A stretch of 64,000 bases of DNA from Ruminococcus bicirculans (ex Wegman et al. 2014) (GCA_963642145.1 CAVIFU010000002.1:9023-73022); one strand, 5' to 3'; shown: positions 11,396 through 54,142, counted from the stretch's first letter. Program-made: numbers and translations. The notes: generated from the letters alone by a model not told the origin.

Positions 11396-12649
11396 ATGAT
11401 TGATCTGACACCACTCAAAAACAGCGATCCGGTTTTGGCGGAAGCTCTTATCAAAGAGCTTAACCGCCAACGTGACAACGTAGAGCTGATAGCCAGCGAA
11501 AACTTTGTTTCGTTACCCGTAATGACGGTTGTGGGAACCCATCTTACCAATAAATATGCCGAAGGCTATCCGGGCAAGAGGTACTACGGCGGATGCGTAA
11601 ACGTAGACGTGATAGAAGATTTGGCACGCGAAAGGGCAAAGGAGCTGTTCGGCGCGGCGTACGCAAACGTCCAACCTCATTCCGGCAGCAGCGCCAACAT
11701 GCAGGCATACAAGGCTCTTATCAACGACGGCGACGTCATCCTCGGTATGGACCTCGGCGCAGGCGGACACCTAACGCACGGCAGTCCCGTCAATTTCAGC
11801 GGCAAAACGTACCGTATCGTGTCGTACGGCGTGGACGAAAACGGTTTCATCGATTACGAAGAGGTAGAGCGCAAAGCGCGTGAGAACAACGTAAAACTTA
11901 TCGTTGCCGGCGCAAGCGCCTATCCGCGCGCAATAGATTTCAAACGTTTCCGCGAAATCGCGGACAAAGTAGGGGCATACCTGATGGTTGATATGGCGCA
12001 TATTGCGGGACTTGTCGCAGCCGGGTTACATATGAGCCCCGTGCCGTATGCGCACATAGTTACCACGACAACGCACAAAACCTTGCGCGGACCTCGCGGC
12101 GGTATGATACTTACAAACGATCCGGATATAGCCAAGCGCGTGGACAAGGCGGTATTCCCCGGCACCCAAGGCGGACCCTTAATGCACATTATTGCGGGTA
12201 AAGCGGTTGCTTTCAAAGAAGCGCTTTCTCCCGAATTCAAGGAATACCAACGCAAGATAGTCTCCAACGCAAAGACTCTTGCCGATACGCTGATGGCAAA
12301 CGGTATCAAGTTGTTCTCCGGCGGTACGGATAACCATTTAATGCTCATAGACTTGCGCGGTACCGGCGTCGGAGGCAAGACGCTCGAAAAGCTCTTGGAC
12401 GAAGCAAACATCACCGCGAACAAAAACAGCATTCCCAACGATAACGCAAGCCCGTTTGACCCCAACGGCTTACGCATAGGCACCCCGGCTGTTACCACCA
12501 GAGGCATGGACGGAGACGCCATGATCGTCATAGGCGAGTGCATAGCAGACATAATCAAAAATAAAGAGGAGGCAGTCGAGCGCACCGGCGCGCGTATTCG
12601 CGAGCTTACCGCCAAATTCCCCCTCTACGAAAACGACTTTATATTATAG
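11396..12649 (+). CDS. glyA: Serine hydroxymethyltransferase
   Basis: PLP-lysine motif [14 protein letters not shown], with full-length conservation. Confidence 0.96.
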
Positions 12650-12658
12650 TAGGATAGT

Positions 12659-13846
12659 ATGAAAAAGGTTTATTTGGATAATTCTGCGACAACGGCTCTT
12701 GATAAGACCGCTCTTGACGCAATGATGCCGTACTTTATCGAAAAGTTCGGCAATCCGAGCTCACTCCATTCGTACGGGAGAGAGGCGTTGCGCGCCGTCG
12801 ATGCGTCACGCGAAACGATCGCGAAGATAATCAACGCACGCACCAATGAAATTTACTTTACTTCCGGCGGAAGCGAGTCCGACAACTGGGCATTGAAGGG
12901 CGTTGTACGCGCCTCACGTGCGAAAACCAAACATATAATCACAACAGCAATCGAGCATCCCGCAATAATGGAAACTCTCGATTACCTTGTGCAGAAAGAA
13001 GGCGTGGAGGTAACATATCTTCCCGTAAACCAAGACGGACTTATCAGCCTCGATGACTTAAAAAAGGCTGTTAGGGACGATACCATATTGGTATCAGTGA
13101 TGTTTGCAAATAACGAGATGGGCGCGATACAACCTATTGCGGAAATCGGCGCGTATCTTCATGAAGAAGGCATCTACTTCCATACCGACGCCGTGCAAGC
13201 CATGGACTCTCAAAAAATCGACGTAGAGGCAATGAATATAGATATGTTGTCCATGTCGGCGCATAAGTTCCACGGACCCAAAGGAATCGGCGTATTGTAC
13301 GTTCGTTCCGGCGTTAAATTGGATAGGCTTATCGCAGGCGGTCACCAAGAACGTCGCGCGCGCGCAGGCACGACCGATACGCCTCTTATCGTAGGCATGG
13401 CAAAGGCATTGGAAATTGCGGATAGGGACAGAGAAGAAAATAATAAGCGTATAGCGGATTTGCGCGACAAATTCGTCAAACGCGTTTTGGAAGAGATACC
13501 GTTCGTGTATCTGAACGGCGGTATGGAACACAGACTTCCGAATAACGCGAATTTAAGCTTTGCGTATATAGAAGGCGAAAGCATCCTCATCAATCTCGAT
13601 CTTGCGGGAATAGCCGTCAGCAGCGGTTCCGCGTGCTCGTCGGGATCCTTAGAGCCGTCGCACGTCATTTTGGCGCTCGGAGTCAAAGAGGAGCTTGCGC
13701 ATAGCTCTATACGTTTCAGCTTGGGCAGAGACACGACGCAGGAAGACATGGACTATACGTTTGAGGTCCTCAAAAACACCGTTGAGAAACTCCGCTCGAT
13801 ATCACCTCTATTTAACATGGAAAAAGGAACAGGTTCTTATGTATAA
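12659..13846 (+). CDS. nifS: Cysteine desulfurase (NifS/IscS type)
   Basis: PLP Lys motif SAHKFHGPKG and catalytic Cys loop SSGSACSSGS. Paired with a small NifU scaffold gene. Confidence 0.92.
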   Translation: MKKVYLDNSATTALDKTALDAMMPYFIEKFGNPSSLHSYGREALRAVDASRETIAKIINARTNEIYFTSGGSESDNWALKGVVRASRAKTKHIITTAIEHPAIMETLDYLVQKEGVEVTYLPVNQDGLISLDDLKKAVRDDTILVSVMFANNEMGAIQPIAEIGAYLHEEGIYFHTDAVQAMDSQKIDVEAMNIDMLSMSAHKFHGPKGIGVLYVRSGVKLDRLIAGGHQERRARAGTTDTPLIVGMAKALEIADRDREENNKRIADLRDKFVKRVLEEIPFVYLNGGMEHRLPNNANLSFAYIEGESILINLDLAGIAVSSGSACSSGSLEPSHVILALGVKEELAHSSIRFSLGRDTTQEDMDYTFEVLKNTVEKLRSISPLFNMEKGTGSYV

Positions 13847-45903: not shown

Positions 45904-47161
45904 AGTGATATTGCATTGCGATCTGAATAATTTCTATGCATCGGTTGAAGCGTTGCTGAATCCCGAATTAAAAGGCAAGGCGATTGCCGTTTGTGGAGAT
46001 CCGACAAGACGACACGGAATTGTGTTAGCCAAGTCGGAACTTGCAAAAAAAGCCGGAGTCCGTACGGGTGAAGCGATATGGGAAGCTAAGCAAAAATGCC
46101 CGGAACTTATAATTGTTCCTCCTACTTTTGCCGAATATGTTAAGTATTCGAGGATGGTAAGGGAAATATATACGGAATTCAGCTCAGAGGTAGAAAGCTT
46201 TGGTTTGGATGAATGCTGGGTCGATGTTACGGGATGTGTTAAACTTTTCGGAACCGGACCCGAGATAGCGGAGAAGATAAGAACAGAGGTTAAACGTCGC
46301 ACGGGAGGATTGACCGTATCCATAGGGGTATCGTTTACGAAAGTGTTTGCAAAACTCGGGAGCGATCTCAAAAAACCTGACGCAATAACCGTAATCAGCC
46401 CGGAAAACTATCGTACGATAGCTTGGAATTTAGACGCGTCCGATATGATATATGTCGGTCGCAGTACGCGCGCAAAACTCGCCAAACTGAATATAAACAC
46501 AATAGGGGACATAGCTCGCGCGGATAAAAATTTAATAGTCAAAACATTCGGCAAGGTTGGCGAAAAGTTATACGAAAATGCGTGCGGAACGGACGAAGAG
46601 CCCGTCAAATCATATACCGAAAAACACGTACCCGAAAGCGTAGGCAACGGTACAACCACAGCCGTGGACATTACCGACGTAAACGAGGCGTCTGCCGTTA
46701 TATACGCGTTATGCGAGATGATAGCGTTCAGATTGCGCACATATGACGCTGTCGCGGAGGGAGTCGGCGTTTATTTGAGGGATGTTGAGTTAAAGCACGC
46801 ATCCAAGCAATGTAAATTGCCTTATCCAACCAATTCTGCGGACATAATAGCTAAAAGCGCAATAGACTTAACAAAATCCTTATACGATTTCAAAAAGTTA
46901 CCGCATTTAAGGACTATAACGGTAAACGTATTCAAGCTTTCACCGTCAAACGAAGCAATGCAAAGCAGTATGTTTGAAGTCGACACAAAAAAGGACGACG
47001 CTTTGGGTAAAGCGATAGATAATTTGCGCTCGAAGTACGGCTATAACGTACTGAAAAGAGCCGTCAACCTCGGTTCGCTGTTTAATTGCGATTCAAAAGA
47101 AGCCGACGACGAGTTCCTGCCGTTCGATAAGAATATGAAAAATATTTCCGACGACGATTAA
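45893..47161 (+). CDS. dinB: Y-family DNA polymerase IV (DinB-like)
   Basis: ILHCDLNNFYASVE, SLDECWVDV and SIGVSFTKVFAKLGSD. Confidence 0.88.
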   Translation: MFDRVILHCDLNNFYASVEALLNPELKGKAIAVCGDPTRRHGIVLAKSELAKKAGVRTGEAIWEAKQKCPELIIVPPTFAEYVKYSRMVREIYTEFSSEVESFGLDECWVDVTGCVKLFGTGPEIAEKIRTEVKRRTGGLTVSIGVSFTKVFAKLGSDLKKPDAITVISPENYRTIAWNLDASDMIYVGRSTRAKLAKLNINTIGDIARADKNLIVKTFGKVGEKLYENACGTDEEPVKSYTEKHVPESVGNGTTTAVDITDVNEASAVIYALCEMIAFRLRTYDAVAEGVGVYLRDVELKHASKQCKLPYPTNSADIIAKSAIDLTKSLYDFKKLPHLRTITVNVFKLSPSNEAMQSSMFEVDTKKDDALGKAIDNLRSKYGYNVLKRAVNLGSLFNCDSKEADDEFLPFDKNMKNISDDD

Positions 47162-47178
47162 TTATAAACACTGTTTGA

Positions 47179-47205
47179 CAAGAGCGACGCATGGCGTCGC
47201 TCTTG
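47179..47205. terminator. Hairpin between convergent dinB and degV (probable bidirectional terminator, no clear U-tract)
   Basis: Perfect 12-bp stem CAAGAGCGACGC / GCGTCGCTCTTG with a 3-nt loop. Confidence 0.5.
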
Positions 47206-47214
47206 CAATATAGG

Positions 47215-48105
47215 TTACTCTTTAATCGGAGCCGGTCTGTCACCGCCTACGAAACAGAAACCTATCGTTCCGGGACCGCAGTGAGTTCCGATTACCGGTC
47301 CTACGTCAAATTGCCATACATCGGCGTTCGGAAGAGAGGCTTTGATACGCGTTTCGGCGCGCAGTGCGTCCTCGCGGCAGTTTGCGTTCATGATAACGAT
47401 AGGGTAGTTTACATCGACTTGCGCCACCAATTCATTTACGATGGTGAGGATTGCTTTGTTCTTGCCGGGAACCGTTGTGAAGGGGTTGAGCGTGCCTTCT
47501 GTGGTAAGCTTGATTACGGGCTTCAATTTTAGCATGGTGCCCAACAGAGCCTTGACGGCAGTGAGTCTACCGCCGCGCTTCAAGTATTGCAGATCATCCG
47601 CAACGAAGAAAGCGTTTATGTGTTCAACAAGCACGTCGAGCATTTCCGTAGTTTCAGCTACGGATTTGCCTGACTTGATGCTTTCATATGCGGCAACGAC
47701 GGCGATACCGGTTGCCATACTTATGCCTTTTGTGTCGTAGCGCGTGAACTTAACGTCGGGGTACTTCGGCTTTAATGTTTTGAGAGCCATTTCCAGATTG
47801 TTAAACGTGCCGCTCATTTTGCTACCGAAACTTACGTAGAATATTTCATCTCCTTTTTTGAAAGCGGGCTCAAATATATCGATGTATTCCTGCTCGTTTA
47901 GCGCGGAGGTGGTAGGCATATTGCCTGCATTTACTTTTGCAAAGAAATCATCGGATATTTCCGGGGTAATCAGTTCCGAACCTTTGGTCTCGCCACAAAT
48001 TGTATACGGCATTTTGATATAGCCCACGGACTCGGAAGTCAATCCGAGCTCCTTCGCTTTGAATAAATTCATCTCGCTGTCTGCGTCGTAAAAAAATTGT
48101 ATCAT
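47215..48105 (-). CDS. DegV family fatty-acid-binding protein (FakB-like)
   Basis: YVSFGSKMSGTFNN, DTKGISMATG, LQYLKRGGR and IGTHCGPGTIGF. The ORF-track start at 48240 was trimmed to the ATG at 48105, which is preceded by AGGAGA. Confidence 0.85.
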   Translation of the reverse strand: MIQFFYDADSEMNLFKAKELGLTSESVGYIKMPYTICGETKGSELITPEISDDFFAKVNAGNMPTTSALNEQEYIDIFEPAFKKGDEIFYVSFGSKMSGTFNNLEMALKTLKPKYPDVKFTRYDTKGISMATGIAVVAAYESIKSGKSVAETTEMLDVLVEHINAFFVADDLQYLKRGGRLTAVKALLGTMLKLKPVIKLTTEGTLNPFTTVPGKNKAILTIVNELVAQVDVNYPIVIMNANCREDALRAETRIKASLPNADVWQFDVGPVIGTHCGPGTIGFCFVGGDRPAPIKE

Positions 48106-48113
48106 GTTGTCTC

Positions 48114-51100
48114 CTATATGTTGAATTGTTTTTTCTCGCGGAGCACTGATTTTCTGCGTTCTATTTCCGCCACGAGTTCGGAGAGAACCTTTTCGCGGGA
48201 AAGCCACCAATCGCGTGACCATACCCTTACTATATCCCAACCCTTACTTTCTAAGAATTTGAATCTGTAAACATCTCTTTCGAGTACGCTTGTGCTGGAG
48301 TGGTAAGCTCTGTAATCGCACTCTATGCCCAGCACGTATTCTTTTAATTCGGGATCGAATATTCCGAGCGAGAGTTTATAATCGGTGTTGCCTAAATTGA
48401 TATCCACGCTGTATCCGAGTTTTTCGAGTTGCTCTTTAATCTGGATTTCATATGCACCTATGGGATCGATGATTTCTTGCGTGCGATGTAAGGATGCAAG
48501 TATGTTTTTGGCCTCTTGCGGCTTGCCATCGGATACCGCTCTTGCATATTGCAGGTATTTTTTCAGAAGTTTCGGTCCGTTGTTTTTGGTCGTTTCCGCA
48601 CGATCGAGCTCCTCCGGCTCGATACTTGTTACGACATAGACCTTGCTCTTTGCACGCGTGATGGCGACGTTCAAGCGATTCTCGCCGCCTTCTACGGAGA
48701 GAGAACCGAATTGAGCGACTACTTTGTCATAGTCGTTGCGTGCGTAACCTACGCTGAATATGATGATGTCGCGCTCTTCGCCCTGTACGTTCTCGAGATT
48801 TTTGACAAACAAACCGGCGTTTTCACCGTCAATCATTCTGTTACGCTCCGCAAATAATTGCTTGCGGAAAGAGGGCGATTTATCCGCCTCGGCGTCAAGC
48901 AGGTCCTCGATGTATTCTTTTTGCTCCATGTTGAACGTAACTATGCCGATAGTTTCGTCATTGGTGCGTTTTGCGAATATGTTTTTAACAAGTTTGACGA
49001 CGGCAACCGCTTCTTCATGGTTGTGACGATTTTGCCAACTGCCTTTGACTTTTATTCGTTCGATAGGCGGTGTGTCGGTATCTTTGGTTATGTTGGGTGC
49101 GATTTGCAGTTTGTTTTCGTAGAAGCTTGCGTTAGAAAAGTCAATCAGCTCTGCGTAACGGCTGCGATAGTGGTACGACAGGTGCACGGGGTAATATCTT
49201 GCCGTGGCAAGATCCAATAGGCTTTCAACTTCAAGAGCGGCTTGAGTAGACAGGTCAAAATTCGGATCGGAATAATAATCGCCGAAATATTTTTTGACAA
49301 AACCTGCCGTGGGGCGTAGCTGTTTATTGTCGCCGGCAACAACCACTTTGCTTCCGCGATATATGGAAGGCAAAGCGTTTTCTATAAAGATTTGCGACGC
49401 TTCGTCAAAGACAACCAAGTCGAATAAGTCTTTTTTGAGTGGCAAAATAGTGCTTACGACTTCCGGCGAAAGTAGCCAGCAGGGGAAAAGCCTCAGCAAA
49501 AAATCGTCAAAATAATCGAACATTTTGCGAATAGGGCGCAATCCGCGTTGTTTTTGTATTTCGTACAGGAAGTCTTTGTTGTGTTCAGCCGTCTTGAAGT
49601 ATTCGCGATAATCGTTACTGAATCCGGACATGGCAAGCTTTTCCGAAAGCTTTCTTTGATCGGCTTTTAGCTTCAGTATTCTGTTACGCAGATCGTCGAA
49701 TGTTACCGTTTTTGAGAGGTAAGGCTCGATATATCTGTCCATTGCGATAATCTCATGGTATATGCGTATCGGCATTATTTTAGAGATTACTTCTTGCATG
49801 GATTCGAGATCGTGCTCGGAATTATCGTACGCAAAATCGAGGAGTAGGCGAACGCCGGGACTTAACGACTTCAGCGCGTCGTTCATATCCCTGATCTTGA
49901 CGTAGTTGTCGAGTGCGTTTTCCAGTTGCTTCAAATAGACGGCGTTTCCGTTTATGAGTCCGCTGACAGCCAATGCATAGCCTTCGTTGTCCAATACTTT
50001 TTCGAGGCTGCGGAATTCTTCGGAGAAGTCATCGAGAGCTTGTTTGGCTACGTTCAAATCTATTTTAACGTTCTCGTAGTACTCGTTGTATTTTGACTTA
50101 ACGAACGGATAAATCGGCCACAAAATGGGGAAAGCCGAGGCTTTGAGCCATCCGGAAAGTGCGGGATGCTCGCAATCCGTAACGATACGAGCTACACGTC
50201 TGACGCTTTTGCGATCGGAAGCGTTGCGCTCGAAATAGAACGTTGCAAGATACCTGCTATGCGGATATTTGGATGAGTCAAACGGCAGTAAACCGGAAGC
50301 AAGCGTTTTTGATATCAGGGCGCGCGCTTCTTTGAGTTTGTGCATATCGATATCCGGCAAAACGTGTTCTACCATGCGATTGTCATTGATAAGTTCTCTA
50401 CGTCCGAGATAAAATTTAGCAAGGTTTTTATCTCCTATCAAACGGAGATTCTCGCTAAGTTCTGCGTAATTAGTGCGAATAATCGCCGTTTTCAGCATCT
50501 TGTTATACAACACATAGTCCTTACTGTCTTTGCCGATGTTGTAACTTCCGGCATACATTTCCTGCAAAGTAATGCCGAACTCGGTAGGCGTGAACAAAGT
50601 ATTGCTGATATCGCTCAGAATGGATATTTCGTGGTTGATGTTGGTCTCTGTTTGCTTATAAGTAGCATGCTCGTCCGCATAACTTGAAGACATCGTAATC
50701 GCATGCATCGTGCGTATACGCTCGAAGAACGCTATTTTATCTTTTTCGGGGTCGGGAATTAACACTGCTTTTGCGTTAAGCTTGCCGAGTCTTGAGAATA
50801 CGACATCGAGGGCCGCGCGCTTTTGGCTGACCACGAGTACACGTTTATGCTTGCACAATGCGTCCGATATGATATTTACGATCGTTTGCGATTTACCTGT
50901 TCCGGGGGGACCGTAAATTACGATATTGTTTTGCTTGTTTATCTCAGCCAAAGCGTTTTCTTGGGCGAAGTCAAGATCGTTGATAGGGTAGTAAGACGGC
51001 GTTTCCGAGCCTTTTACGCGTTTGGCTTTGCGCATCGAGCGCGAGTCCTTTTTTGTGGAGGCGGGAGACAAGAGTGCGTCTATGGACGGCGTTGTCAAAT

Positions 51101-51959
51101 TGTCTTTTTCGAGGGCGAGATAGTCGTTGTATATCGCGTTTGCCAGCGGAAATTTGCCGATAACGGCATAATTGCGCACTTCCACGCCATCGAGAGGCAT
51201 ACCGTAAGAATCGAACGTGGACAGACTTTTGCGTTTCGGAACGCGCAGTTTGAATCCGTTCGCATTCAAATAATCGACGACTTCATAGGCGTTTTTGAAG
51301 GTGTCGTCGGATTGGGGGTCAAATTCTTGGATTATCTTATCGACTGAGATATTGTGTTCTTTTGCATACGCGAGCACAAGCGCCTTGTTTAGCATTACCG
51401 GTTGGTTCGGCGTTAACGTCAATTCCGCATCATCCTTTTCGATGTTGATGTGGGCAGGGAAGAGAAGTAGCGGCGCTTTAAGTTGGATATCCTTTGAAAG
51501 ATACCCGACTACAAACGGGTAGCCGATATATAAGTCATAGAGTCCGGTTTCTTTTTCGGTTTCCTCGACTTCGCGTTTCAGATATTTCAATGCGCCGATT
51601 TGAGCGGAAGCAATAGACCCCACGCTCTTTTTTTGAGGTTGCTTTTTGACGGTAACGACTTCTTCGGTATCCGTTGCAAGCGTTTCGTTTACGGCGGTAA
51701 GACGCTCGATCTCTGCATTCGCTTCATCGATTTTTGTAGCCTGTTTTACCAATTTTGCGATGACCTTATCGTTTATCAAAGAAAAACTGCGACGTCTGTG
51801 CCACAAAAAATCCGTGAAGTCATCGGTATCGGAGCGGTTTTCCATTATGGCACCGATATCGTAATTGTATTTTTTGACTATGCCTTTAAGAAATAAACTG
51901 CGATTATTTCCGCTTATCTGAATAAATCTCTCTTTGTATTTTCCGTAAATAGGGTTCAT
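48114..51959 (-). CDS. 1281-aa fusion protein: DUF4011-like N-terminal region, Upf1-like SF1B helicase (AAA_11/AAA_12) and C-terminal DUF559/Vsr-like endonuclease domain
   Basis: Helicase motif I is GPPGTGKS (aa 350-357, nt 50889-50912). Other helicase motifs are Ia VLVVSQKRAALD, II VVFDEASQ (aa 849-856), III VVAGDNKQLRP, YHYRSRYAELIDF, QGEERDIIIFS and VI NRLNVAITRAK. The C-terminus carries IFDP..LGIECDYRAYH..RDVYRFKFLESKGWDIVRVWSRDWW. The N-terminus carries NRSLFLK, GLYDLYIGYPFVVG and APLLLFP. Confidence 0.85.
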   Translation of the reverse strand: MNPIYGKYKERFIQISGNNRSLFLKGIVKKYNYDIGAIMENRSDTDDFTDFLWHRRRSFSLINDKVIAKLVKQATKIDEANAEIERLTAVNETLATDTEEVVTVKKQPQKKSVGSIASAQIGALKYLKREVEETEKETGLYDLYIGYPFVVGYLSKDIQLKAPLLLFPAHINIEKDDAELTLTPNQPVMLNKALVLAYAKEHNISVDKIIQEFDPQSDDTFKNAYEVVDYLNANGFKLRVPKRKSLSTFDSYGMPLDGVEVRNYAVIGKFPLANAIYNDYLALEKDNLTTPSIDALLSPASTKKDSRSMRKAKRVKGSETPSYYPINDLDFAQENALAEINKQNNIVIYGPPGTGKSQTIVNIISDALCKHKRVLVVSQKRAALDVVFSRLGKLNAKAVLIPDPEKDKIAFFERIRTMHAITMSSSYADEHATYKQTETNINHEISILSDISNTLFTPTEFGITLQEMYAGSYNIGKDSKDYVLYNKMLKTAIIRTNYAELSENLRLIGDKNLAKFYLGRRELINDNRMVEHVLPDIDMHKLKEARALISKTLASGLLPFDSSKYPHSRYLATFYFERNASDRKSVRRVARIVTDCEHPALSGWLKASAFPILWPIYPFVKSKYNEYYENVKIDLNVAKQALDDFSEEFRSLEKVLDNEGYALAVSGLINGNAVYLKQLENALDNYVKIRDMNDALKSLSPGVRLLLDFAYDNSEHDLESMQEVISKIMPIRIYHEIIAMDRYIEPYLSKTVTFDDLRNRILKLKADQRKLSEKLAMSGFSNDYREYFKTAEHNKDFLYEIQKQRGLRPIRKMFDYFDDFLLRLFPCWLLSPEVVSTILPLKKDLFDLVVFDEASQIFIENALPSIYRGSKVVVAGDNKQLRPTAGFVKKYFGDYYSDPNFDLSTQAALEVESLLDLATARYYPVHLSYHYRSRYAELIDFSNASFYENKLQIAPNITKDTDTPPIERIKVKGSWQNRHNHEEAVAVVKLVKNIFAKRTNDETIGIVTFNMEQKEYIEDLLDAEADKSPSFRKQLFAERNRMIDGENAGLFVKNLENVQGEERDIIIFSVGYARNDYDKVVAQFGSLSVEGGENRLNVAITRAKSKVYVVTSIEPEELDRAETTKNNGPKLLKKYLQYARAVSDGKPQEAKNILASLHRTQEIIDPIGAYEIQIKEQLEKLGYSVDINLGNTDYKLSLGIFDPELKEYVLGIECDYRAYHSSTSVLERDVYRFKFLESKGWDIVRVWSRDWWLSREKVLSELVAEIERRKSVLREKKQFNI

Positions 51960-51985
51960 ACGGGCTCCTCGATTCGATTTTCTAT

Positions 51986-52014
51986 ATTATAACACGCGCG
52001 CGTTTGTTTGTAAA
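51986..52014 (-). promoter_or_regulatory. Near-consensus extended -10 promoter for the helicase-nuclease gene
   Basis: On the minus strand: TTTACA (52014-52009), 17-nt spacer ending in TGT, TATAAT (51991-51986). The RBS GAGGAG is at 51970-51965. Confidence 0.6.
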
Positions 52015-52113
52015 TTAGAAATATATCTACCGACTAAGTTTTACCGTTCTTGCAAGTGTATAGTCATTGTCGGATAAAAATAAAAAAATAATTGATAAAT
52101 GTACGTTTTTCGT

Positions 52114-52142
52114 TTCGGAATTTTGGAAAAATGTGGTATAAT
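52114..52142 (+). promoter_or_regulatory. Candidate extended -10 promoter for thyA-folA
   Basis: TGgTATAAT (52134-52142) with a weak -35 TTCGGA (52114-52119). Confidence 0.4.
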
Positions 52143-52164
52143 AATAAAAATTGTTGAGGTAGAC

Positions 52165-52995
52165 ATGAGTTACGCTGATAAAATTTTTGTCGAAAACATA
52201 ACCGACATATTGGAAAACGGTTTTAGCGACGAGTCTCTCGAAGTAAGACCCAAATGGACGGACGGCACGCCGGCGCATACGATAAAAAAATTTTGTATCG
52301 TGAACAGATACGATCTGTCAAAGGAGTTCCCGATAATAACTTTGCGCAAGACCGTATTCAAAGCGGCGGTAGAAGAAATGTTATGGATTTGGCAAAAAAA
52401 ATCGAACAACGTCAACGATTTGAAAACGCGCATTTGGGATGCTTGGGCGGACGAATCCGGCTCGATAGGCAAGGCGTACGGATACCAACTCGGAGTCAAA
52501 CATAAGTACAAAGAGGGCGAATTCGATCAAGTCGACAGAGTACTGTACGACTTGAAACACAACCCACAGTCAAGGCGCATTATGACTAACATTTATGTGC
52601 ATGCGGACTTGCATGAGATGAATCTTTATCCGTGTGCATACTCAGTAACTTTCAACGTGTCCGGCGATACGCTGAATTGCATCCTCAACCAACGTTCACA
52701 GGATATGATTACGGCAAACAATTGGAACGTCGTGCAATATGCGGTGCTGCAACACATGATGGCGCAAGTAAGCGGATTGAAAGTAGGCGAATTGGTCCAC
52801 GTAATAGCGGACGCGCACATTTATGACAGGCACGTCGATATTGCCAAAGAAATGCTCGGTAGGGAACAATTCCCGGCGCCCAAATTTACCATAAACAAAG
52901 ACGTCAAAGATTTTTATGCGTTCACCGTAGACGATTTCGGTTTGGAAGATTATCGGTTTACTCCGTTGGATAAAAAAATCGAGGTGGCTGTATAA
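52165..52995 (+). CDS. thyA: Thymidylate synthase (ThyA)
   Basis: LRKTVFKAAVEEMLWIW, RRIMTNIY, and the catalytic Cys in LYPCAYSVTFNV, plus DAHIYDRH. The ORF-track start at 52099 was trimmed to the ATG at 52165. Confidence 0.93.
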   Translation: MSYADKIFVENITDILENGFSDESLEVRPKWTDGTPAHTIKKFCIVNRYDLSKEFPIITLRKTVFKAAVEEMLWIWQKKSNNVNDLKTRIWDAWADESGSIGKAYGYQLGVKHKYKEGEFDQVDRVLYDLKHNPQSRRIMTNIYVHADLHEMNLYPCAYSVTFNVSGDTLNCILNQRSQDMITANNWNVVQYAVLQHMMAQVSGLKVGELVHVIADAHIYDRHVDIAKEMLGREQFPAPKFTINKDVKDFYAFTVDDFGLEDYRFTPLDKKIEVAV

Positions 52996-53498
52996 TGAGG
53001 GCTATTGTCGCTGTGGACAAAGAGTGGGGAATAGGCAAAAACAACGGTATGTTGTTCCATTTGCCCAAAGATCTCGCTTTTTTCAAAAAAACAACAATGG
53101 GAAAGGTCATAGTCATGGGAGGCAACACGCTGTTGTCGTTCCCTAACTCCAAGCCGTTGCCCGGACGCACGAACATAGTTTTGTCGGAAAGTATCGAGAG
53201 GGAAGATTGTGTCGTAGTCAAAAGTTTGTCCGCATTGTTTTCGGAGCTTGAAAAGTATAGCTCGGACGATATTTTTATCGTCGGCGGGGCTAAATTTTAC
53301 GCTACAATGATAGACTATTGTGCCGTAGCTTATGTTACCAAAGTTGATGAAATAGGCGAGGCTACCGTGTTTTTTCCGAATCTTGACGATAGAGAAAATT
53401 GGTCGTTACGTAGCGAGAGCGACAAAGAAGAAGACAACGGGCACATCATATCGTTTACCGAATACGTAAACGCACATCCGAAAAAGTTCATTTTATAA
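52995..53498 (+). CDS. folA: Dihydrofolate reductase
   Basis: IVAVDKEWGIGKNNGMLFHLPKDLAFFKKTT, VIVMGGNT and FIVGGAKFY. 1-nt overlap with the thyA stop. Confidence 0.92.
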   Translation: MRAIVAVDKEWGIGKNNGMLFHLPKDLAFFKKTTMGKVIVMGGNTLLSFPNSKPLPGRTNIVLSESIEREDCVVVKSLSALFSELEKYSSDDIFIVGGAKFYATMIDYCAVAYVTKVDEIGEATVFFPNLDDRENWSLRSESDKEEDNGHIISFTEYVNAHPKKFIL

Positions 53499-53506
53499 TT
53501 ACAGTA

Positions 53507-54142
53507 ATGAGTGTTTGTCAGGTAAGAAGAGTAACATATGCCGCGTTCGGCGACTCAAATAGCTACATCGTATTTTTCGACGATACAAACAAAGCTATCT
53601 TGTTCGATTGCGGAAAATCGTATAAGACGTACAGCGCTTTCTGCGAAAAGCACGGATTGGAAGTTGAGGCGGTCTTTTTAACACACGGGCATATCGACCA
53701 TATAGCGGAAGGCGCGTTATGGAAAAATCGGGGTGCCAAGATATACATTTCTCGCGAGGACGCACAATATCTCAATTCAGATCTGAATCTTGCATCGCGA
53801 TTCAGAGTCGTTTATACTCCGTACGAAGCCGATGTTTTGTTGGAAGGAGGAGAAACGATAGACTTCCACGGACACAAGGTGCACGTTATAGCCACCCCGG
53901 GGCATACTAAGGGAGGTCTGAGCTACGCAATAGAGGGTCTTTTGTTTACGGGAGATACGCTGTTCGCGGATAAAATCGGTCGTACCGATTTCTATGGCGG
54001 AGACTTCTTTGCGCTTCTCAATTCGCTTAAAAAAATCATTGCGCTACCAAAGAACACCATCGTTTATCCCGGGCACGGAGAGTGGGTGACGGTTGGCAAA
54101 ATACTCGAAAAGAATCCGTACGTGAGGTCGCTTAATGTTTGA
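53507..54142 (+). CDS. MBL-fold metallo-hydrolase (glyoxalase II-like)
   Basis: THGHIDHI metal motif, TPGHTKG and GDTLF. Confidence 0.87.
   Translation: MSVCQVRRVTYAAFGDSNSYIVFFDDTNKAILFDCGKSYKTYSAFCEKHGLEVEAVFLTHGHIDHIAEGALWKNRGAKIYISREDAQYLNSDLNLASRFRVVYTPYEADVLLEGGETIDFHGHKVHVIATPGHTKGGLSYAIEGLLFTGDTLFADKIGRTDFYGGDFFALLNSLKKIIALPKNTIVYPGHGEWVTVGKILEKNPYVRSLNV

Follow-up and report, generated by a model that had tools for sequence, protein, structure and literature searches.

Hhe, ProA and the PADLOC candidate PDC-S37 are the described systems closest to the gene considered here. Hhe, a single-gene system of Gao 2020, joins a DUF4011 domain, a superfamily 1 (SF1) helicase and a Vsr-type nuclease in one polypeptide. 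According to a preprint (bioRxiv 10.1101/2022.06.16.496414), it is active against the phages lambda, T3, T7 and PhiV-1, it loses defence in the E. coli nuclease mutant E1731A, and it is an accessory gene in E. coli. Several T7 class II genes of DNA metabolism appear to trigger Hhe, and expression of the triggers is toxic alongside Hhe (bioRxiv 10.1101/2024.10.10.617714); these data fit a sensor that responds to abnormal DNA metabolism, not to a single phage protein. No paper naming ProA was found in the literature, so that ProA rests on its NCBIfam name alone, and no published validation of PDC-S37 was found either. The protein of this study is encoded on the minus strand at 48114..51959 in a stretch of 64,000 nucleotides from Ruminococcus bicirculans (CAVIFU010000002.1:9023-73022), hereafter the window. 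It is a compact member of the DUF4011/Hhe/ProA superfamily, and its gene is vertically inherited and core-like in Christensenellales-like gut Clostridia. Because of this inheritance pattern of the compact family, the favoured interpretation, to which a probability of about one half is given, is a lineage-core housekeeping enzyme of genome integrity that acts on the cell's own abnormal replication and repair intermediates, and not a mobile accessory immune module.

The open reading frame (ORF) is unbroken, starts with ATG, ends with TAG at 48114-48116 and encodes 1281 amino acids (aa); a public protein (P0001) is 100% identical to its product. An earlier note on this DNA had described one intact ORF of this length with three modules and intact catalytic residues, and the ORF call, the Pfam matches and an alignment of family members agree with it; all the motifs quoted there are found at their places. 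The N-terminal region contains NRSLFLK, GLYDLYIGYPFVVG and APLLLFP. It begins with a conserved segment (residues 1-60, 51780..51959, on the minus strand like all parts of the protein) that holds NRSLFLK and the invariant residues Y8, R11, G17, R20, K29, K30 and D34. A mixed alpha/beta DUF4011 core, delimited by Pfam and a structural model, occupies residues 121-300 (51060..51599), and the Pfam DUF4011 match covers residues 94-194 with 26.0 bits (gathering cut-off 22.2).

The second module is a complete Upf1-like helicase core split by a helical insert of about 410 aa. Pfam AAA_11 matches from residue 329 (67 bits) and AAA_12 at residues 920-1112 (79.6 bits), both above their gathering cut-offs. 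The N-terminal part of helicase domain 1A, defined by Pfam and the alignment (residues 326-400, 50760..50984), carries motif Ia and the Walker A sequence GPPGTGKS (residues 350-357, nt 50889-50912), within which lies K356. The family-specific, all-helical insert, as modelled, spans residues 401-810 (49530..50759) between motifs Ia and II, and it is unlike the corresponding ProA region. The C-terminal part of domain 1A and domain 2A follow at residues 811-1115 (48615..49529; Pfam, alignment and Foldseek), with motif II VVFDEASQ (residues 849-856, DEASQ at 852-856), motif III GDNKQLRP (876-883), motif V QGEERDIIIFS (1059-1069, QGEERD at 1059-1064) and motif VI NRLNVAITRAK (1094-1104).

The third module, an endonuclease domain placed by Pfam, the alignment and Foldseek at residues 1171-1266 (48162..48449), contains the string IFDP...LGIECDYRAYH...WSRDWW at residues 1200-1252, and the protein ends 15 aa beyond it. 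The domain matches the Pfam restriction endonuclease (REase) model MTES_1575 (PF18741) with E 2.5e-23 and 82.4 bits against a cut-off of 38.2 bits, and the DUF559 model only weakly (E 0.056). The earlier assignment to DUF559/Vsr-like nucleases is therefore kept for its Vsr-like part and dropped for DUF559. MTES_1575 was defined as a novel Vsr-fold REase (Anantharaman et al. 2013, PMC3710099), and the C-terminal nuclease is best described under that name. The Pfam scan of the 1281-aa protein found no DUF3320, no PLD, no N-terminal nuclease domain and no RNA-binding accessory domain.

The earlier note had regarded this architecture as lacking an assigned function, which does not hold, since the same combination of DUF4011, SF1 helicase and Vsr nuclease is present in Hhe and ProA, and likewise in the candidate PDC-S37. 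PDC-S37 is the strongest profile match (E 8.6e-166, 552 bits), window residues 486-1277 aligning with positions 588-1349 of a 1550-position profile that has no curated cut-off and whose roughly 200 further C-terminal positions find no match in the window protein. The PADLOC profile of Hhe (PDLC02194) is matched with E 6e-90. ProA (NF058533) is the best NCBIfam match at 574.3 bits, and Hhe (NF042953) reaches 400.8 bits; to pass as equivalogs, proteins need 1500 bits with the ProA profile and 2000 bits with that of Hhe (curated cut-offs), and genuine ProA proteins recovered in this study score 1825-2197 bits against the ProA profile. By its scores, which lie far under the equivalog cut-offs, the window protein is a member of neither Hhe nor ProA. 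The good alignment with Hhe is confined to residues of about 800-1276, whereas the Hhe model has about 1800 positions (1797 in the NCBIfam profile).

The comparison with ProA from Bacteroides finegoldii (WP_237924679, 1985 aa) is more detailed. That protein consists of an N-terminal region of about 400 aa, DUF4011 at 410-581, AAA_11, AAA_12, MTES_1575 at 1648-1742 and DUF3320 at 1824-1869. DUF4011, Walker A, motifs II-VI and the MTES_1575 nuclease are collinear in the two proteins, and only two collinear blocks are aligned by BLASTP: window residues 123-395 with 503-759 (27% identity) and 805-1271 with 1305-1747 (35% identity). Unlike ProA, the window protein lacks the N-terminal region of about 400 aa, its residues 1-122 having no ProA counterpart, and it lacks the C-terminal extension of about 240 aa bearing DUF3320, a tail region that overlaps two winged helix-turn-helix (wHTH) domains (Anantharaman 2013, PMC3710099). 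The central insert is also unrelated, with no alignment to the equivalent region of ProA. Overall, the window protein has the Hhe/ProA architecture in a compact form, reduced to its core. As a side observation, one bona fide ProA gene (L176; locus numbers with L are those of the collection scans) lies on the B. finegoldii 'plasmid 29' (NZ_OY725931.1) between rpsA and a convergent gene for a 'reverse transcriptase family protein'. That sequence also has glutamine synthetase III and bglX and therefore resembles a chromosomal fragment and not a plasmid, as does the Bernardetia 'plasmid' locus L177, which bears purA and rnpA.

The compact form is not an isolated protein. A word-indexed protein search gave more than 4500 homologues, of which the best 120 are all full-length, with about 1240-1300 aa and an identity declining smoothly from 88% to 49%, and come mostly from animal-gut Clostridia or Christensenellaceae metagenome-assembled genomes (MAGs). 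An exhaustive search of representatives placed 22,659 clusters in the superfamily with E <= 1e-3, of which 7,504 had E <= 1e-30. The nearest 50%-identity clusters, about 45 in number, each give one uninterrupted alignment over the full length, and their proteins measure 1100-1450 aa. In one collection scan, half of the loci sampled (40 of 80) were compact-family relatives, and complete genes were available for 33 of these, from MAGs of Clostridia, Eubacteriales and Christensenellaceae. The compact family is thus large, with members of about 1220-1420 aa in Christensenellales-like gut Clostridia.

Across 40 aligned members, with identities down to 49%, all helicase motifs (I, Ia, II, III, V and VI) are invariant, and so are the nuclease residues E1171, E1213, D1215, E1227, D1229, R1249 and D1250. 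Mean identity to the window protein is 73-82% in the helicase core (82% over residues 326-400), 73% in the nuclease, 64% in the N-terminal 60 aa, 58% in the DUF4011 core, 51% in the helical insert and 16-20% in the two linkers. Helicase and nuclease are both under strong purifying selection, with DUF4011 and the insert less conserved. The protein is 500-700 aa shorter than Hhe and ProA and has none of their terminal modules, so that it might be what is left of a longer Hhe/ProA gene, decaying or catalytically dead; given an unbroken ORF and a large compact family, such an origin is scarcely credible, and a pseudogene or dead enzyme is ruled out by the invariant ATPase and nuclease motifs. On the side of more distant relatives, the Spiroplasma homologues (L218, L220; 40-42% identity) are split into four to five ORFs under translation table 11. 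They are probably intact genes because UGA encodes Trp there, so that even the reduced genomes of Mollicutes contain helicase-nucleases of the DUF4011 type.

The genomic position is conserved to a considerable depth. The collection scans give samples of loci and not a census of the clade, and thyA is uninformative as a bait for presence or absence because it is 72-83% identical across phyla, a radical-SAM bait being better. On every sufficiently long contig sampled from species-representative genomes of close relatives (helicase 71-87% identical), the order is pnp-rpsO-rSAM-MBL-folA-thyA, then divergently helicase-degV, then dinB-coaE-polA, in which rSAM and MBL stand for the radical-SAM enzyme and the MBL-fold hydrolase. 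The divergent arrangement of rSAM-MBL-folA-thyA and the helicase gene is kept at helicase identities of 60-62% (L010-L012, L180), 53% (L077), 46% (L187) and 43% (L191, Christensenella sp.). In more distant relatives with this arrangement the downstream partner has changed, ddl-murF standing in place of degV, and the pairing with degV is kept in relatives with 45-87% helicase identity. The divergent placement of the helicase gene beside thyA-folA predates the separation of lineages that now share only 43% helicase identity.

Sequence divergence follows a similar course. Within the close clade, helicase identity (71-87%) is above that of polA, dinB, folA, coaE, the MBL-fold hydrolase and the radical-SAM gene. 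The identity of a helicase to the window protein also correlates with that of the flanking housekeeping genes (Spearman 0.75-0.90). In Mantel tests over all pairs from 14 genomes, the helicase and its neighbours gave r = 0.60-0.78 (p = 2e-4). A precedent for reading such a gene as core is provided by Pseudomonas aeruginosa, in which every isolate has a large DUF4011 gene, and this gene is taken as a core landmark beside a defence hotspot (PMC10250203).

Single-gene defence usually takes the form of a recently acquired or island-borne accessory module. For the window gene, this form has in its favour only the family-level homology to defence proteins, and it is very improbable: the gene has a G+C content of 45%, equal to that of its flanks in a composition scan, its position is kept in all close relatives sampled, and its neighbours are housekeeping genes. 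No integrase, transposase or tRNA boundary was seen among the genes adjoining the helicase, and only distant relatives (at most 36% identity) were found in the plasmid and phage collections, with no close ones. The view in the earlier note that composition gives no mark of recent acquisition is thus upheld, and recent horizontal acquisition is ruled out by composition and synteny.

The flanks were also compared with defence models. The ORFs next to the helicase gene, two to the left and two to the right, were searched against PADLOC at E <= 1e-10 in compact and in long relatives, two sets of loci that differ in taxonomy. At 33 compact-family loci, 123 flanking ORFs matched three PADLOC models through nine proteins: mad3 (6), PDC-M51A (2) and pVip (1). 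By Pfam, the compact flanks include six ABC-transporter ATPases and four radical-SAM enzymes, and therefore the three PADLOC matches are generic cross-matches; the other flanking genes are thyA, DHFR, DegV, Ddl, YajC, SecA, enolase, NrdD and similar. No genuine defence gene is present among the 123 ORFs. At about 32 loci of long relatives (1425-2373 aa), 119 flanking ORFs matched 221 PADLOC models, among them models for restriction-modification (a type IV enzyme, and the methyltransferase and specificity subunits of type I), for pAgo, CARF and a reverse transcriptase-helicase of the DRT kind, and for GajB (Gabija), MkoA and mad6; three of five long relatives sampled exceed the ProA cut-off. 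The ten neighbours of the gene in the window gave no defence match in PADLOC besides the expected cross-match of the PolA domain.

These results bear on the proposal, made in the earlier note, of a candidate defence module. The homology to anti-phage Hhe and ProA and to the candidate PDC-S37 supports it; the conserved synteny and the lack of association with defence islands do not. The earlier note had itself named such a pattern beforehand as one that would speak against its idea. Since orthologues are kept at this position across the clade without defence islands, the proposal survives as a rival only, as a fixed, constitutive single-gene defence against phages or plasmids, that is, a streamlined protein of the Hhe/ProA type that is chromosomally fixed in the clade. 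Such a protein would sense phage-perturbed DNA metabolism or foreign replication intermediates and then cut DNA, with a direct or an abortive outcome. This alternative is tentatively entertained as a real possibility. Synteny down to 43% helicase identity and conservation above that of polA are atypical of defence genes, the flanks are free of the defence genes that are many beside the long relatives, the compact form has none of the conflict-associated accessory modules carried by the long forms, and no association with mobile elements, plasmids or phages was seen.

Several observations weigh against a core housekeeping role, and some of them favour the fixed defence gene. The Mantel controls between housekeeping genes gave 0.84-0.93, above the helicase values; co-divergence of the helicase with its neighbours is strong, and somewhat looser than among true core genes. 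At similar divergence of the neighbours, helicase identity spans 43% to 62%, which suggests either unequal evolutionary rates or that a divergent allele has replaced the gene in situ. For example, where the radical-SAM gene is 45-50% identical, the helicase is 43-46% identical in two loci (L187, L191) and 60-62% in two others (L010, L011). The gene is also not universal among related genomes. One locus (L098:1-6170) has thyA-folA-MBL-rSAM and a tsaE-tsaB-rimI block, with no helicase at the junction, which holds instead an LtaS-like sulfatase-family protein, a glycosyltransferase and a multi-pass membrane protein. Homologues of 49-50% identity lie in other, mostly housekeeping contexts. One of 50% identity, from a Eubacteriales MAG (L008), is flanked by the unvalidated candidates PDC-M51A and PDC-S16: at L008:3259-4821, 12090-12452 and 12756-13742 there are a radical-SAM protein matching PDC-M51A (E 4e-41), a small protein matching PDC-S16 (E 2e-21) and a weak match to PDC-S18. 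This is the only compact-family context sampled with any defence flavour; it also holds a putative IS200-like transposase, so named by the look of its translation only. An integrative and conjugative element interrupts the chromosomal DUF4011 gene of Mycoplasma hominis (PMC12228374), and therefore at least that relative is dispensable.

Other points of this kind concern function. All relatives that have been tested by experiment or given a name (Hhe, ProA) are anti-phage proteins, and in PADLOC the top match is a candidate model for defence. In the literature, no experimental study of a member of the compact branch was found, neither a repair phenotype nor biochemistry. No LexA/Cheo-box site was seen upstream of the helicase gene or dinB, although the Cheo consensus may not be that of the clade; Cheo-box matches numbered 38 overall against 43 expected, which is no enrichment and weak negative evidence. 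In favour of a fixed defence gene one may count the strong homology to PDC-S37, ProA and Hhe, the need of Hhe defence for the Vsr-nuclease residue E1731, the apparent triggering of Hhe by T7 class II functions with toxicity of the trigger, the helicase-free junction, which would make the gene dispensable, the looser Mantel congruence, and the faster evolution of the putative sensor regions (DUF4011 58%, insert 51%) compared with the catalytic cores (73-82%). Housekeeping and fixed immune roles are not mutually exclusive, as the example of RecBCD shows.

Predicted structures add to the assignment of the modules. AlphaFold2 models were built in two pieces, residues 1-335 and 310-1281. The first is a moderately confident mixed alpha/beta domain with a mean predicted local distance difference test (pLDDT) score of 68, most of residues 30-270 being at about 62-91 and the linker 91-110 at 38-45; in a Foldseek search of the PDB, this N-terminal/DUF4011 model had no significant relative among solved structures (best E 0.37). 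The second model is poor globally (pLDDT 63, predicted template modelling score 0.34), so only its local Foldseek matches are drawn on; in the helical insert, most model residues at about 120-440 have a pLDDT of about 65-89. The C-terminal domain, itself modelled with moderate confidence (pLDDT mostly about 61-87), superposes on the catalytic domain of I-Bth0305I (3r3p_B) with a target-normalised template modelling (TM) score of 0.72, a root-mean-square deviation of 3.4 A and a probability of 1.00, the search-wide E value being 0.13. A Vsr-like endonuclease fold is supported by this model. An endonuclease fold at the C-terminus had been set beforehand as a test in the earlier note, and Pfam and Foldseek (TM 0.72) both speak for it.

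The helicase parts have local Foldseek matches to IGHMBP2, Upf1, Sen1 and Dna2, and a PDB sequence search returned the same Upf1-like helicases (IGHMBP2, Upf1/Nam7, Sen1). As these closest solved cores are RNA or RNA/DNA helicases, the motor might run on RNA or RNA:DNA hybrids, with the nuclease resolving R-loops or degrading aberrant transcripts. Such an enzyme is improbable here, however: the Vsr-fold/MTES_1575 nucleases and I-Bth0305I are DNA endonucleases, Hhe is described as a nuclease-based system against DNA phages, and no RNA-binding accessory domain was found by Pfam.

For the favoured role in genome integrity, a mechanism can be proposed as follows. The Upf1-like superfamily 1B (SF1B) motor would draw on ATP (K356) to move 5'->3' along a single strand of nucleic acid, which would most likely be DNA at gaps, flaps and stalled or aberrant forks. 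DUF4011 and the 410-aa helical insert may serve in substrate recognition and autoinhibition, and the C-terminal Vsr-fold endonuclease (E1213/D1215) would nick or cleave the DNA engaged by the motor. The role itself is suggested by analogy with the core helicase-nucleases Dna2, AddAB and RecBCD. Biochemically, the protein most likely works like Hhe, and an anti-phage or anti-plasmid effect, if any, would be a by-product of the same activity.

In the window, the divergent neighbour thyA (52165..52995, plus strand) is conserved context outside the protein, separated from the helicase gene by 205 bp (51960-52164). In this intergenic region each gene has an extended -10 element of its own, in divergent orientation: that of the helicase gene is TGnTATAAT (hexamer ending at 51986, minus strand) and that of thyA is TGgTATAAT (52134-52142), and the stretch between them is very A+T-rich. 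The promoter-like site of the helicase gene, TTTACA-17-TATAAT with a TG extension (51986..52014, minus strand), lies 27 nt upstream of the ATG and scores 11 of 12 in a consensus scan, the top site of the region. The near-consensus extended -10 site of the earlier note is thus present as a predicted promoter, by its match to the consensus only. On the other side, degV (47215..48105, minus strand, ATG at 48105) follows the helicase stop after an 8-nt spacer, with its ribosome-binding site GGAGA overlapping the helicase stop codon, and therefore the two genes form a tight operon. The pairing with degV proposed earlier is confirmed in this way; 'stand-alone', the term used for the gene in the same place, is right for a single ORF and wrong for a gene that appears to be translationally coupled to degV.

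The genes flanking the helicase in the window (polA, coaE, the Y-family polymerase gene dinB, degV, thyA, folA and the genes of an MBL-fold hydrolase and a radical-SAM enzyme) are housekeeping genes. The claim that the flanking genes all belong to DNA or nucleotide metabolism is correct for polA, the Y-family polymerase, thyA and folA; it fails for coaE and degV's other neighbours of unrelated function, namely the genes of the MBL-fold hydrolase and the radical-SAM enzyme, and for PTS EIIC and patatin. Some details of the neighbourhood vary. An extra gene of about 1.2 kb lies between folA and the MBL hydrolase in relatives (among L006, L007, L009, L016-L018, L010 and L011); it encodes an Iso_dh-family dehydrogenase in L010/L011, and the window junction (53498-53507) has no such gene. 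About 1.9 kb extra between degV and dinB in relatives is likewise missing from the window (47161-47215), and the closest relative (L001) resembles the window in having neither extra stretch. In a 60%-identical relative (L179:1613-7863), two large ORFs (about 1290 and 770 aa) lie between thyA and the helicase gene, degV being still downstream. The G+C content of the window is about 50% over 1-24000 and 43-47% over 24001-64000, with a fairly sharp step near 24 kb.

One possible evolutionary scheme goes further, and is rather unlikely as a whole. The compact family could be a previously unrecognised housekeeping enzyme of genome maintenance in Christensenellales-like Clostridia, tied to thymidylate supply through its divergent arrangement with thyA-folA, and the cellular counterpart of mobile Hhe and ProA; under dTTP or uracil stress, for example, it might process the resulting gaps or forks. 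The mobile forms would then have gained HEPN, transglutaminase or wHTH modules on the common core. The opposite direction, an immune gene that was domesticated and kept for family-level evolutionary time, is possible.

Annotation pipelines and defence finders label any DUF4011/helicase/Vsr protein as Hhe/ProA-like immunity. Here a large compact branch of the superfamily behaves in its genomes like a core gene. If this is true, counts of defence systems in gut Clostridia built on sub-threshold matches to models of the Hhe/ProA type are inflated, the family provides a tractable case for the kinship of housekeeping and mobile immune helicase-nucleases, and the minimal form of 1281 aa is simpler than the proteins of 1800-2000 aa for working out the mechanism of the Hhe type. 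The interest is of a moderate, specialist kind and lies chiefly in a warning to those who annotate defence genes and in a minimal model of the Hhe type of enzyme; the result is no great surprise.

Among known systems, Nhi and type II Mokosh share with the window protein only the Upf1-like/COG1112 helicase core (MkoC E 4e-33, MkoA E 8e-31, helicase only). They lack DUF4011, their nuclease is of another type and position, and they are far more distant from the window protein than Hhe, ProA and PDC-S37. Dna2, AddAB and RecBCD resemble it in having an SF1 motor fused or partnered with a nuclease of the PD-(D/E)xK type and in their core chromosomal inheritance, and the local Foldseek match to Dna2 is to its helicase domain. 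They differ in domain order and nuclease family, the nuclease of Dna2 being N-terminal, and show no detectable orthology, so this likeness is one of functional analogy only. Hhe shares the whole architecture and is an accessory gene in E. coli, whereas the window gene is syntenic and core-like. The architecture itself is known, and what is new here is that the Hhe/ProA superfamily has a compact, core-like branch whose link to thyA is deeply conserved.

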